From a virus (lineage: Duplodnaviria; Heunggongvirae; Uroviricota; Caudoviricetes): a DNA stretch of 38,221 bases. The stretch lies in the IMG/VR virus record IMGVR_UViG_2585427971_000006; one strand, written 5' to 3'. The translations under genes and the position numbers were made by a program. This document shows, in pieces, positions 172-3,562 of the stretch (position 1 is its first letter; every line of letters starts with the position of its first letter). The notes under the pieces were generated by a model, which saw nothing but the letters and a program-made list of their open reading frames with translations, did no database searches and was not told where the DNA came from.

Positions 172-227
172 AAAGGGAGGCAGAGCAGTCACGGAGTAAA
201 ACTGATACCGCCAAACGTCACCAGAAA
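172..227 (-). ncRNA. dicF: DicF-like sRNA (cell-division inhibitor sRNA of Qin-type prophages)
   Basis: Reverse complement of 171-227 reads TTTCTGGTGACGTTTGGCGGTATCAGTTTTACTCCGTGACTGCTCTGCCTCCCTTTTT, matching my memory of E. coli DicF except about one base; ends in a U-run; lies downstream of the ydfC-like ORF on the same strand as in Qin. Ends are approximate. Confidence 0.7.
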
Positions 228-567
228 ATTGATAACAGAGGGCGTTGCAGCGGGGTTGTCACTTAAGCGTATGGTCAACCTGACAACCCGGTGTCCTCAA
301 CGGGGAAGGAATAACCCCGCCATACTTACCGCCGCGCCATTTCGCGTAGTGCCACAACCGGAAGCGCACGGTCGACGAAAATTTAACGACAGGCTATCTA
401 TGAACCAGCTACCTCGCCGTGCGCTTTCGCGTTATGGTCTGACTTTTCATGGAAATATCCTTTCAGTAAACTGTCAGTGCCGGATGCTCACCCGTGTCCG
501 GCGCACGCACTCCACCTCACCCGTGGAGAACTCCTTAATTACCAACCTTAGCTTCGTTGGTTAGCTA

Positions 568-786
568 TTAACGCTGGTATGTAATCATTCTGGCAATGCT
601 TAATGCCGCTGCTTTTTCCAGCCTGGTGATATCCTGCTCCAGAGCGGACAGATTTTCAGCCTGCTTAGCCCTGGCTTCATTGGCCCATTTCAGATCCTGC
701 GCTGCATTAATTTTCTGGCGCATCCACTCATAAAGTTCATCATCGGTATAGTCTGGCGCGATGATGACGGGTTCTCGTTTCTGCAT
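568..786 (-). CDS. ydfC: small prophage protein, YdfC-like (72 aa)
   Basis: Track ORF of 72 aa; size and position (last ORF before the DicF-like sRNA, same strand as the repressor) match Qin ydfC; sequence identity not verified. Confidence 0.6.
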   Translation of the reverse strand: MQKREPVIIAPDYTDDELYEWMRQKINAAQDLKWANEARAKQAENLSALEQDITRLEKAAALSIARMITYQR

Positions 787-815
787 ACTGATTCCTCGCG
801 GTGCTGCTTCGCTTA

Positions 816-944
816 TCAGCCGTTAGATTTTGCCGAGCTGGAAAGCGCCTGTTTAAACTCACTGAAGCTGAGAGCTTCTTCGCCTTCGGTAAGGCCTTCG
901 AAGTATTCTTCGTAAGCCTTTTTCATGATTGTGTCGAAATCCAT
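816..944 (-). CDS. ydfB: small prophage protein, YdfB-like (42 aa), absent from the ORF track
   Basis: Manual translation MDFDTIMKKAYEEYFEGLTEGEEALSFSEFKQALSSSAKSNG; ATG at 944-942 sits 2 nt after the stop of the upstream ORF; 42 aa matches Qin ydfB in size and position. Confidence 0.5.
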   Translation of the reverse strand: MDFDTIMKKAYEEYFEGLTEGEEALSFSEFKQALSSSAKSNG

Positions 945-945
945 A

Positions 946-1101
946 TCACTCACCTGAGTTTCTTTCCAGCCAGCGACGGGCACCATTTTCGGTTTTAAAC
1001 GTTTTGCTTTTGGTATACGTCATCGCGGTGAATGTGCCGTCCTGGTTGGGAAACACGCCGTACACCAGAGATTCGTTGTTGCCAAGATCGATAGTATCCA
1101 T
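946..1101 (-). CDS. ydfA: small prophage protein, YdfA-like (51 aa from internal ATG of track ORF 946..1182)
   Basis: Internal Met gives MDTIDLGNNESLVYGVFPNQDGTFTAMTYTKSKTFKTENGARRWLERNSGE, exactly 51 aa as expected for YdfA; first gene downstream of the repressor on the same strand. Confidence 0.55.
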   Translation of the reverse strand: MDTIDLGNNESLVYGVFPNQDGTFTAMTYTKSKTFKTENGARRWLERNSGE

Positions 1102-1287
1102 GTTGACCTCATTTCCCCTTAACGCCGGGGTAGCGGAACAAAAACCTGCTGCATAGTTATTAAAGTTGAACCCTGCCGTCATGTTCTTACGCCTCGGGCT
1201 GGCTACTTAACCCCTGACCACTGCCTGGTAACTCGAAGTATTGCCCTGCATTCTGTGGGGCGGGGTGGGTTGGTATGAAAAGAAGGA

Positions 1288-1324
1288 TACCCATAGGTAT
1301 TTAAAAAGTAAATACCCATGGGTA
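1288..1324. promoter_or_regulatory. pair of operator-like palindromes (OL-like) between repressor 3' end and the ydfA-like operon
   Basis: TACCCATAGGTA (1288-1299) and perfect 12-bp palindrome TACCCATGGGTA (1313-1324), about 25 bp centre to centre, in an AT-rich intergenic region. Confidence 0.4.
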
Positions 1325-1366
1325 AATTTTTGCGGTGTCTTAACTGGTGACTAGTTGTTTGGTGAG

Positions 1367-1786
1367 CTATGATGCGTTTTGTGCTTTCTTTTTACGGATT
1401 TCTTCGTAGATCATATTGTAATACTGTTTTTTCTCTTCAAGAGTTTTTAATAATTTATCCGCTTCACTTTCTGGCAGTTCGTCTAAGAGATCTAAAAAAA
1501 TACGTTGTCGTGGCGTTAGAACCCTTGTTTCATAACTGGAGGCTGTGTTCGTTGATGATGAAACGATACCATCCATCCATCCCCGGGGTAACCCAAAGGA
1601 CTCTTCGATAATCTCCACCATATCATCAGCGATCCGTTTTTTTCCCTTTTTCCCCTCTGGGTACAACATTCTTGATACATAAGAAGGCTCGCGCCCGATC
1701 TTTCTGGCCACGTTAACCGCTTTACCATCGCATTTCTCATCACGAATTTTGATGAGTTGCTGTCGTCTAAATTCATATTTGTCCAT
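1367..1786 (-). CDS. CI-like prophage repressor, helix-turn-helix (139 aa)
   Basis: Divergent from the cro-like gene; HTH-like segment AVNVARKIGREPSYVSRML; occupies the dicA/racR position; not similar to my recollection of K-12 DicA. Confidence 0.75.
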   Translation of the reverse strand: MDKYEFRRQQLIKIRDEKCDGKAVNVARKIGREPSYVSRMLYPEGKKGKKRIADDMVEIIEESFGLPRGWMDGIVSSSTNTASSYETRVLTPRQRIFLDLLDELPESEADKLLKTLEEKKQYYNMIYEEIRKKKAQNAS

Positions 1787-1821
1787 AGGTAAATAATAGA
1801 TGCGATTACCGCAAGGTAAAC

Positions 1822-1862
1822 AACCTGTGGGTATTGACTTTTGTTTACCTGTGGGTATTCTT
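1822..1862 (+). promoter_or_regulatory. OR-like operators overlapping a rightward promoter for the cro-like gene
   Basis: Two related half-palindromic sites ACCTGTGGGTAT (about 1823-1834 and 1847-1858) sharing the CCxxTGGGTA core of the leftward sites; TTGACT at 1834-1839 with a possible -10 TATTCT at 1856-1861; AAGGAG RBS follows at 1876-1881. Confidence 0.4.
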
Positions 1863-1886: not shown

Positions 1887-2168
1887 ATGGAAGAATTAAG
1901 AATATTTCTCAATTCTCTTTCGTCAGATGAACAGCGTATGTTTGCATGCGAGTGTGGTACCAGCATCGGTTATCTAAGAAAGGCATTGAGTAAAGGTCAA
2001 GTGTTAGGGGCATCGTTATGTGTCCTTATTGAGCGAGCCAGTAATGGTGAAGTTACACGTCAGCAACTAAGGCCTTTTGATTGGATGAATATTTGGCCCG
2101 AGCTGGAAGATACCAAAACGTTAACACAACAACTTTCTAGGAGCTTGATTCATGAAAATCAAGCATGA
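1887..2168 (+). CDS. Cro/YdaS-like HTH regulator (93 aa)
   Basis: AAGGAG RBS 6 nt upstream of ATG; motif GTSIGYLRKALSKGQVLGASLCVLIERASNGEVTRQQLRPFDW typical of the YdaS/Cro-like family encoded opposite prophage repressors. Confidence 0.75.
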   Translation: MEELRIFLNSLSSDEQRMFACECGTSIGYLRKALSKGQVLGASLCVLIERASNGEVTRQQLRPFDWMNIWPELEDTKTLTQQLSRSLIHENQA

Positions 2169-2577
2169 ACACATCCGCATGGCGATGAATGTCTGGGCGC
2201 ATCCGGACGGCGAAAAAGTGCCGGCTGCGAAAATTACCAAAGCGTATTTCGAGCTGGGAATGACGTTCCCGGAACTGTATGACGACAGCCATCCGGAAGC
2301 CCTGGCCCGTAATACCCAGAAAATTTTCCGTTGGCTGGATAAAGACACCCCTGATGCTGTTGAAAAAATGCAGGCTCTGTTACCGGCGATCGAAAAGGCG
2401 ATGCCGCCTTTGCTGGTGGCCCGTATGCGCAGCCACAGTTCTGAATATTACCGTGAGATCGTCGAACGGAGGGATCGGCTGGTGAAGGATGTCGATGATT
2501 TTGTTGCGTCAGCGGTTGTTTTGTATGACCAGATGAATCGCGGCGGCCCGGCAGGGAATGCTGTGGTGATGCACTAA
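2152..2577 (+). CDS. YdaT-like protein (141 aa)
   Basis: Overlaps the 3' end of the cro-like gene by 17 nt, RBS AGGAG at 2138-2142; arrangement repressor / YdaS-like / YdaT-like as in Rac; family assignment from memory. Confidence 0.65.
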   Translation: MKIKHEHIRMAMNVWAHPDGEKVPAAKITKAYFELGMTFPELYDDSHPEALARNTQKIFRWLDKDTPDAVEKMQALLPAIEKAMPPLLVARMRSHSSEYYREIVERRDRLVKDVDDFVASAVVLYDQMNRGGPAGNAVVMH

Positions 2578-2599
2578 AAGCACGGTGTTCGGGGGTTTT

Positions 2600-3562
2600 A
2601 TGAGCAGCAAGCTTCATGGTCTTGTCTGGGAAGGGTGCGCCTTCACCGGCATGATCTTATCCAGGGTGGCGGTTATGGCCCGTCTTGCAGACTACAGCAA
2701 TGACGAGGGCGTGTCATGGCCTGCCATTGAAACTATCCGGCGTCAGATCGGTGCAAGAAGTGAATCCACAGTGAAATCGGCTATTGCAGAACTGGCGAAA
2801 GAGGGCTGGCTGACGAAGGAAGAGCGTAAGGTCGGTGGGCGTAATGTAAGCAATATCTATCGGCTTAATGTGGAAAAACTCGAAGCAGCTGCGGCGGCGG
2901 CGCGTGAGTCATATAAACCGAAAAGAAAAATTAGCCCGGCAAAAAATGACCCGTTAACAGTTGACCCGTCAAATATTGACCCCTCAACGGTTGACCCGTC
3001 AAATTTTGATGGATCAACTGTTGATAAAAAACTGCCGATTAGGGGGCCGATGATTGACCCCGATCCGTCAGTATTAAAACCTGATCCGTCAGATAAAAGA
3101 TCTTCTTGTCCGGACGCTTCGCAACCGGACCCGCAGACGGCTGAACAGGATTTTTTAACCCGACACCCTGACGCGGTTGTGTTCAGTGCGAAAAAACGCC
3201 AGTGGGGAAGTCAGGAAGATTTGGTGTGCGCACAGTGGATCTGGGGACGAATCGTGAGTCTTTACGAGCAGGCGGCCAGCTATGATGGCGAGATCACTAG
3301 ACCGAAAGAACCCAACTGGACAGCATGGGCCAATGACGTTCGCACAATGCGGATGCTGGATGGCAGAACTCACAGACAAATTTGTGAAATGTTTGGGCGT
3401 CTCCAGCGGGATTCGTTCTGGGTAAAAAACATCATGAGTCCGGCAAAACTCCGGGAAAAATGGGATGAACTGGTTATCCGCCTGGGGCGTTCGCCTGCGC
3501 AGCGTTGCGTGAATCACATTTCTGAACCGGACACTGAAATTCCGCCGGGCTTCAGGGGGTAA
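2600..3562 (+). CDS. phage replication initiation protein (N-terminal winged-helix, C-terminal DnaT/O-like domain)
   Basis: ATG at 2600 preceded by GGGGG; central DPS-rich repetitive linker encoded by iteron-like DNA repeats; C-terminal segment WGRIVSLYEQAASYDGEITRPKEPNWTAWANDVRTMRMLDGRTHRQI resembles the DnaT-type replication domain; track ORF starts at GTG 2585. Confidence 0.75.
   Translation: MSSKLHGLVWEGCAFTGMILSRVAVMARLADYSNDEGVSWPAIETIRRQIGARSESTVKSAIAELAKEGWLTKEERKVGGRNVSNIYRLNVEKLEAAAAAARESYKPKRKISPAKNDPLTVDPSNIDPSTVDPSNFDGSTVDKKLPIRGPMIDPDPSVLKPDPSDKRSSCPDASQPDPQTAEQDFLTRHPDAVVFSAKKRQWGSQEDLVCAQWIWGRIVSLYEQAASYDGEITRPKEPNWTAWANDVRTMRMLDGRTHRQICEMFGRLQRDSFWVKNIMSPAKLREKWDELVIRLGRSPAQRCVNHISEPDTEIPPGFRG
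2946..3005. repeat. four iteron-like 15-bp repeats (TGACCCGTCAA core) inside the replication gene, followed by an AT-rich tract: candidate ori
   Basis: Repeats begin at 2946, 2961, 2976 and 2991 with exact 15-bp periodicity; AT-rich stretch at 3001-3040; two further degenerate copies near 3054 and 3081. Confidence 0.55.

Follow-up and report, generated by a model that had tools for sequence, protein, structure and literature searches.

The stretch of DNA analysed here (the window, 38,221 bp; IMG/VR record IMGVR_UViG_2585427971_000006, Caudoviricetes) carries a gene for a repressor of 139 amino acids (aa), a divergent cro gene and five palindromic sites of the form TACC-N4-GGTA, two of them downstream of the repressor gene and three in the gap between repressor and cro. 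We consider it very likely, judging from the sequence, that these five sites serve as operators in an immunity switch of the lambda type and are bound by dimers of the 139-aa repressor, the downstream pair forming a left operator (OL) and the intergenic triplet a right operator (OR). The switch is very probably a new and uncharacterised one with a widespread DNA specificity and a textbook mechanism. A preliminary description of this DNA had already read the sites as OL and OR, and three lines of evidence support this reading: the geometry of the promoters, conservation in 49 sequences with the repressor N-terminal domain (NTD) in common, and a natural swap in phage Tritos. The specificity, which it did not recognise, is indeed uncharacterised: six operator strings match only unrelated primer sequences in the literature, publications mentioning mEp043, a phage with the same sites, hold nothing on its operators, and the repressor (WP_000362153.1) is labelled a hypothetical protein in RefSeq.

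Candidate operators around the repressor gene

All four sites that the preliminary description listed are present in the window. The downstream pair consists of TACCCATAGGTA and TACCCATGGGTA, 25 bp apart from start to start. The intergenic pair, given there as 1823-1834 and 1847-1858, matches an exact 13-nt direct repeat, ACCTGTGGGTATT, at 1823-1835 and 1847-1859, 24 bp apart within the 100-bp repressor/cro gap; in palindromic register it becomes OR2, with one mismatch, and OR1 (Table 1). The adjoining TTGACT was likewise found. Only two right-hand sites had been counted, and a third, TACCGCAAGGTA, was missed, so that OR is tripartite. Relative to the repressor ATG, OR1, OR2 and OR3 start at -71, -47 and -32 and the downstream sites at +462 and +487. 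The common core proposed earlier, CCNNTGGGTA, holds in so far as it gives six matches against 0.75 expected, but the match inside the repressor gene at 1654-1663 (CCTCTGGGTA) fits only this looser core and was rejected as probable chance. On sequence grounds a better consensus for these putative operators is TACCY-N2-RGGTA.

A motif search over the 38,221 bp returned four exact matches to TACCNNNNGGTA against 0.15 expected, an enrichment of about 27-fold, and none of 100 shuffled sequences reached four. All four lie inside the two clusters flanking the repressor gene. A candidate for a further site over the repressor ATG, TGTCCATAGGTA at 1780-1791, has two mismatches, is not conserved in the family and is probably due to chance.

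Promoter geometry

The gene layout is that of an immunity switch: repressor and cro diverge from a short gap, in which face-to-face PR (rightward) and PRM (repressor maintenance) promoter candidates occupy 1793-1861. The operator layout, three OR sites and two OL sites at promoters, is that of a lambda-type switch. The -35 hexamer of PR fills the gap between OR2 and OR1, its -10 hexamer opens with the last two bases (TA) of OR1, and the -35 hexamer of PRM lies inside OR3. The repressor ATG (1786) is the seventh nucleotide after the PRM -10 and has no Shine-Dalgarno sequence, so the repressor messenger RNA (mRNA) is predicted to be leaderless, a property shown experimentally for the PaaR2 repressor (PMC8630535).

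The left-hand side has, on the minus strand, TACCCATGGGTA-TTTACT-17 nt-TATCCT. This candidate leftward promoter (PL) repeats the layout of PR, with its -35 hexamer between the two sites and its -10 hexamer starting from the last TA of the proximal one, and it is directed into ydfA-like, ydfB, ydfC and the DicF RNA.

Table 1. Coordinates of the putative immunity switch and its neighbours in the window
Feature	Coordinates	Strand	Remarks
OL proximal operator (candidate), TACCCATAGGTA	1288-1299		last two bases (TA) open PL -10; 25 bp from distal site, as in family
OL distal operator (candidate), TACCCATGGGTA	1313-1324		exact TACC-N4-GGTA; equivalent in 40/49 family sequences
OR3 (candidate), TACCGCAAGGTA	1807-1818		overlaps PRM -35 and spacer; starts -32 from ATG (family -33)
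OR2 (candidate), AACCTGTGGGTA (TACCCACAGGTT on repressor strand)	1822-1833		degenerate half-site typical of family; centre 41.5 bp upstream of predicted PRM start
OR1 (candidate), TACCTGTGGGTA	1846-1857		overlaps PR -10; exact in 45/49 family sequences
PR-like promoter, TTGACT-16-TATTCT	1834-1861	+	promoter scan; -35 1834-1839, -10 1856-1861
PRM-like promoter, TTTACC-16-TATTAT	1793-1820	-	promoter scan; -35 1820-1815, -10 1798-1793
PL -35 hexamer (predicted), TTTACT	1307-1312	-	read from sequence, between OL sites; family TTGAC/TAGAC at same place
PL -10 hexamer (predicted), TATCCT	1284-1289	-	read from sequence; 17-nt spacer; start predicted near 1277; geometry conserved
RNA hairpin of the two OL palindromes and flanks, 16-bp stem, then UCCUUCUUUU	1288-1324	-	terminator scan; possible terminator of repressor transcript
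Repressor gene, 139 aa	1367-1786	-	1-74 mEp043-type helix-turn-helix NTD; 76-86 linker; 87-139 DicA-like helical C-terminal domain; no S24
cro, 93 aa, YdaS-like	1887-2168	+	inherited together with repressor NTD
ydaT (CII equivalent)	2152-2577	+	100% identical to CP-933P YdaT (PDB 8BT1)
YdaT operator, OM motif, TTGATTCATGAAAATCAA	2145-2162		exact match, single occurrence; cro/ydaT junction, where PRE (repressor establishment promoter) lies in CP-933P
PL genes: ydfA-like DUF1391 946-1182, ydfB 816-944, ydfC 568-786, DicF RNA 175-226	175-1182	-	

Conservation across the repressor family

The family comprises 49 sequences: 46 loci obtained by scanning one genome per species with the NTD alignment, the window itself, and phages mEp043 and CharmingMan. 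NTD identity to the window is 45-82% in the 46 genome loci and 45-100% over all 49. The carriers belong to alpha-, beta- and gammaproteobacteria (Enterobacterales, Aeromonas, Vibrio, Burkholderiales, Neisseria, Stenotrophomonas, Rhizobium and others); a scan of viral contigs matched only near-identical E. coli prophage copies.

Nearly all 49 sequences have three TACC-N4-GGTA sites starting at -73, -48 and -33 from the repressor ATG. Besides the exact OR1 (Table 1), OR3 has at most one mismatch in 46 sequences, and OR2 exactly one in 33, mostly in the same half-site (GGTT, GGGA, GGTC or GGCA). The spacing between OR2 and OR3 is 15 bp in 48 of the 49 and that between OR1 and OR2 is 24 or 25 bp in every one. 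The central 4 bp of the sites and most flanking bases vary; what is kept is the TCAA flank of OR2 (the TTGA of the PR -35 on the opposite strand), TTTACC at OR3 (the PRM -35) and a -10-like hexamer 6-7 nt ahead of the repressor ATG. In 40 of the 49, the repressor operon is followed by an OL pair with a spacing of 24-26 bp; TTGAC or TAGAC comes right behind its first site, and a TAnnnT hexamer begins where its second site ends. Elsewhere in some 270 kb of family sequence exact sites are almost absent.

The sites follow the repressor N-terminal domain

Phage Tritos offers a natural swap. The DNA encoding the repressor C-terminal domain (CTD) and the PL leader are common to this phage and the window, as two pieces of 87% identity within window positions 1150-1483. 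Its NTD differs, and the segment between the two common pieces, which is the OL segment, is replaced. Its 5.3 kb contain no TACC-N4-GGTA site, and AGTACAT repeats 24 bp apart stand at both OR and OL (locus L004, 2365-2395 and 2917-2955). Phage mEp043 is the converse case, with a different repressor CTD and different neighbours (cII, N, O/P) yet the same sites. Taken together, the two indicate that the sites follow the repressor NTD and not the rest of the region. The comparison with Qin operators suggested in the preliminary description adds that Qin has no TACC-N4-GGTA sites. With a homologous cro in almost all family loci, the repressor NTD, the putative operators and cro form one inherited unit.

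It is quite improbable that another protein reads the sites in place of the 139-aa repressor, the candidate being the YdaS-like Cro alone. Such a role would fit with cro accompanying the sites in nearly all loci, and lambdoid Cro proteins do bind the operators of the repressor (PMC8630535). However, five Klebsiella loci (L086, L089, L090, L092 and L093, at about 2400-2500) have an S24-type repressor homologue and no divergent cro; OR2 and the PR -35 are absent there, and OR1, OR3 and the downstream sites are kept, which favours the repressor as a reader. This cro-less homologue may descend from the phage switch and be a LexA-like regulator that stands alone and controls itself. Moreover, the predicted recognition helix of the repressor, SYVSRML, is nearly invariant, in keeping with the invariant TACC half-site. 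YdaT was excluded as a reader since its own, different operator, known from footprinting in CP-933P, is present at 2145-2162.

Domain organisation of the repressor

The repressor, assigned by PHROGs to the class transcriptional regulator, has no Pfam match and no significant match in a PDB sequence search; weak matches to ADAR Z-alpha were dismissed as chance. Its residues 1-86 are 65% identical to the cI NTD of phages mEp043 and CharmingMan, and residues 86-136 match residues 81-131 of DicA from Qin (NCBIfam E 1.9e-5, BLASTP 2e-7). The AlphaFold model, with a mean predicted local distance difference test (pLDDT) score of 85, comprises a helix-turn-helix at 3-63 (NTD pLDDT about 90), a disordered linker at 76-86 and helices at 92-102 and 106-138. 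The nearest solved folds are the SPC32H Rep repressor and the DNA-binding domains of XRE-type, C-protein and HigA proteins. No S24 peptidase (PF00717) was found by Pfam in the repressor, which ends at residue 139 with two helices.

Among 1.84 billion representatives, homologues of the NTD form 223 clusters at E<=1e-10. Most have an S24 (LexA-type, PF00717) C-terminus and a minority a short DicA-like tail. The family signature MDKYE...SYVSRML...LPRGWMDG is present in the window repressor.

The repressor gene also contains, at 1634-1655 on the minus strand, runs of five and seven A (GGGGAAAAAGGGAAAAAAACGG, coding EGKKGKKR). Two database homologues, P0010 and P0019, start in an alternative frame (open reading frame 1516-1776); the return to the repressor frame occurs at the A-run in P0010 and further downstream in P0019. 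As read from such sequences, frameshifted repressor alleles exist in some E. coli genomes, and they may reflect slippage-prone inactivation.

Proposed working of the switch

Sequence, geometry, conservation and co-variation are observed here; binding, order of occupancy, PRM activation and induction route are predicted. Repressor dimers would bind the five sites through the N-terminal helix-turn-helix. On OR1, over the PR -10, and on OR2, abutting the PR -35, they would keep transcription of cro, ydaT and the replication genes off; OR2, centred about 41.5 bp before the PRM start predicted here, is also in the right place to stimulate PRM, which would yield the leaderless repressor mRNA. OR3, over the PRM -35, would mediate negative autoregulation when the repressor is abundant or under Cro, of which it is the likely first target. 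The OL pair, bracketing the PL -35 and overlapping its -10, would silence the ydfABC-dicF-dicB operon. The YdaS-like Cro, linked to the NTD, most likely uses the same sites as the repressor, and YdaT would act through its separate operator at 2145-2162. Without an S24 domain the repressor should escape RecA-mediated cleavage, and induction, if any, would proceed through an antirepressor or by some other route; PaaR2 does not respond to mitomycin C.

Several observations weigh against this interpretation. One-mismatch versions of TACCNNNNGGTA occur in the window at chance level (10 versus 7.6 expected) and OR2 itself has a mismatch, so that OR2 is credible only by its position and its conservation in the family. 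The same chance frequency is what would be expected of sites that are chance repeats or a recombination remnant with no regulatory role. We regard this prospect as negligible, given that the exact sites are strongly enriched and confined to two clusters, and that position, spacing and promoter overlap are conserved over three proteobacterial classes while the surrounding bases diverge. The repressor NTD and cro co-occur almost everywhere, and comparison alone therefore cannot separate the repressor from Cro as the reader. No Pfam family spans the NTD. PL fits the consensus at just 8 of 12 positions, below the threshold of the promoter scan, which for this reason did not report it. As for induction, the window has no LexA box within three mismatches of the consensus, its single CTGT-N8-ACAG match being at chance level, and PHROGs annotates no antirepressor in the early right operon, in a window that does not include the left end of the prophage. 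Antirepressors can act in trans.

A hairpin over the left operator

The two OL palindromes and their flanks can pair with each other in RNA to form a hairpin with a 5-nt loop and a T-rich tail, flagged by a terminator scan. The fold has a free energy of about -22 kcal/mol (z -5), is more stable than all of 200 shuffled sequences and is the strongest in the family. The OL pair could thus also, or instead, be an intrinsic terminator that blocks PRM read-through into the toxic dicF/dicB operon. No other terminator-like hairpin was found from the repressor stop codon at 1367 to PL, whereas in mEp043 and CharmingMan OL is preceded by a separate canonical terminator, which makes a second, terminator role plausible in this lineage.

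On the other hand, any two copies of a palindrome pair with each other. Over the family the stability of the hairpin ranges from -6 to -21 kcal/mol and the conserved feature is the promoter between the sites, so termination is not the conserved function. The stem, stable as it is, is AT-rich (5 of 16 pairs are G-C), and the U-tract is interrupted (UCCUUCUUUU). We consider an added terminator role unlikely. That the pair is a terminator only is very improbable: the left motif matches the OR sites and co-varies with the NTD, which a terminator alone leaves unexplained.

Neighbouring genes and mosaic structure

The cro product scores 25.9 bits against Pfam YdaS_toxin (PF15943), under the gathering cut-off of 30, and is clearly homologous to the solved Cro proteins 8C7K and 8CO2 (E 1e-10). 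A homologous divergent cro (MEELRxYLNSLS...CGTSIGYLRKA) is found in almost all family loci. The YdaS/YdaT pair had been described as Rac-like. This needs amending for cro, which is no import from Rac: it is co-inherited with the NTD and the operators from E. coli to Neisseria and Stenotrophomonas. YdaT is the YdaT of CP-933P. The YdaT operator TTGATT-N6-AATCAA was footprinted in CP-933P (PMC9986795), and the exact OM motif together with the identical YdaT suggests that a PRE-like, YdaT-controlled promoter is probably present here too.

Downstream of ydfC, the DicF antisense RNA (Rfam RF00039, 69.3 bits) confirms that the left arm is Qin-like. The immunity module is mosaic, as proposed before, but its joints differ from those implied then: one falls within the repressor gene, at its NTD/CTD linker, others flank the OL cassette on either side, and another is close to where cro meets ydaT. 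Of Qin/Tritos type are dicF, ydfCBA, the PL leader and the part of the repressor gene that codes for its C-terminal half. The OL cassette, the N-terminal half of that gene, OR and cro are mEp043-like, and from ydaT and its operator onward the region is CP-933P-like.

By eye, Qin has the same promoter-operator layout between dicA and ydfA (L132, 2842-3009), with repeats of its own, TGTTAGCTATAGC ... TTGACC ... TGTTAGTCATGGCTAATCT. This suggests that two sites bracketing a -35 hexamer are a general design for this left operon.

Further to the right, a 15-bp unit, approximately CCCGTCAAATATTGA or TTGACCCGTCAA, is present in five copies at 2926-3024, within a gene for an O-like replication initiator (2585-3562). 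By sequence the copies look like origin iterons, as in lambda ori.

Distribution and significance

Of 5426 complete E. coli genomes, 821 contain at least 80% of the 801-bp immunity region, among them strains of sequence type 131 (ST131). The Tritos-type sister immunity, with AGTACAT repeats and the same repressor CTD, is found in 1047 of the 5426, including a Rac-like prophage of EDL933 (L133). In ST131 strains such as EC958 the prophage is located between zinT and tRNA-Ser/mtfA. Among the contents of the EC958 prophage (L131), the counterpart of the entire window, are iss, iraM, hokD, lom, an IS200C insertion, tRNA-Arg and tRNA-Ile. Its integrase is frameshifted, so it may be unable to excise; its structural genes look complete.

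The analysis assigns a predicted function and a target motif to WP_000362153.1. In TACCY-N2-RGGTA at fixed spacing it also provides an operator that is simple to search for and that delimits an immunity group, from which cross-immunity between prophages and phages such as mEp043 can be predicted. NTD, operators and cro appear to travel as a unit, and the CTD, hence the induction route, is exchanged. The switch would govern dicF and dicB, inhibitors of host cell division. The gain is one of annotation and comparative insight and does not involve a new principle.

A wider scheme can be put forward tentatively, being somewhat unlikely as a whole. In it, the NTD, the TACC-N4-GGTA operators and Cro would circulate across Proteobacteria with either an S24 or a non-cleavable DicA-like CTD. 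The latter form, in about 15% of complete E. coli genomes, would be a natural 'ind-minus' repressor that gives SOS-proof immunity to its immunity group (e.g., mEp043) and silences co-resident prophages of the same immunity, with OL doubling in this lineage as a terminator that insulates dicF/dicB from PRM read-through.

Comparison with known systems

Among structurally characterised repressors the best match to the model is Rep of Salmonella phage SPC32H (PDB 5D50, Rep-Ant complex), similarly built of a helix-turn-helix NTD and a helical C-terminal part; the match is borderline (E 1e-3, template modelling (TM) score about 0.46, 17-24% identity), and no Ant homologue was identified. The window repressor also falls into the size class of the short Gifsy-type repressors (about 135-150 aa), for which Lemire et al. 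proposed antirepressor control (PMC3121763).

Qin is similar in the DicA-like CTD, within its DicA/DicC-dicB system, and in the left operon ydfA-ydfB-ydfC-dicF-dicB, but the window NTD is unrelated to that of DicA. The nearest precedent studied by experiment is the PaaR2/YdaS/YdaT system of CP-933P from E. coli O157:H7, in which PaaR2 and YdaS bind OR and OL and bistability was demonstrated (PMC8630535). The two share a short non-cleavable repressor, a leaderless repressor mRNA (predicted here), a YdaS-type Cro, OR and OL, and a 100% identical YdaT with the operator TTGATT-N6-AATCAA at the same junction. They differ in that PaaR2 operators are 18-bp palindromes of consensus GTTTAGTAA and that paaR2 is followed by the toxin-antitoxin genes paaA2-parE2, whereas the repressor gene of the window is on its own. 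The analysis established no sequence link between the two repressors. The idea that the Tritos repressor is PaaR2 was dropped, its EDL933 counterpart lying in the Rac-like prophage (sieB, kilR, recE) and not beside paaA2-parE2.

For lambda CI/Cro, the comparison draws on the summary in PMC8630535 and on general knowledge. Common to both are divergent repressor and cro genes, a tripartite OR with OR1 over the PR -10 and OR3 over PRM, an OR2 that is weaker and sits about 42 bp ahead of the PRM start, a repressor mRNA without a leader (predicted in the window) and a second cluster at the leftward promoter. Unlike in lambda, the operator has a 12-bp core, TACC-N4-GGTA (17 bp in lambda), OL has two sites (three in lambda), the 139-aa repressor has no S24 cleavage domain, ydfABC-dicF-dicB stands on the left in place of N/nut, and YdaT takes the place of CII.

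The same putative DNA specificity is found in the isolated lambdoid phages mEp043 and CharmingMan. These are flanked by genes of the cII, N and O/P type and have a separate terminator ahead of OL, and their repressors have an S24 C-terminus and so are probably cleavable in the SOS response. They nevertheless share with the window the 65% identical NTD, the same sites at 25/15-bp spacing, the layout of PRM and PL, and a homologous Cro.

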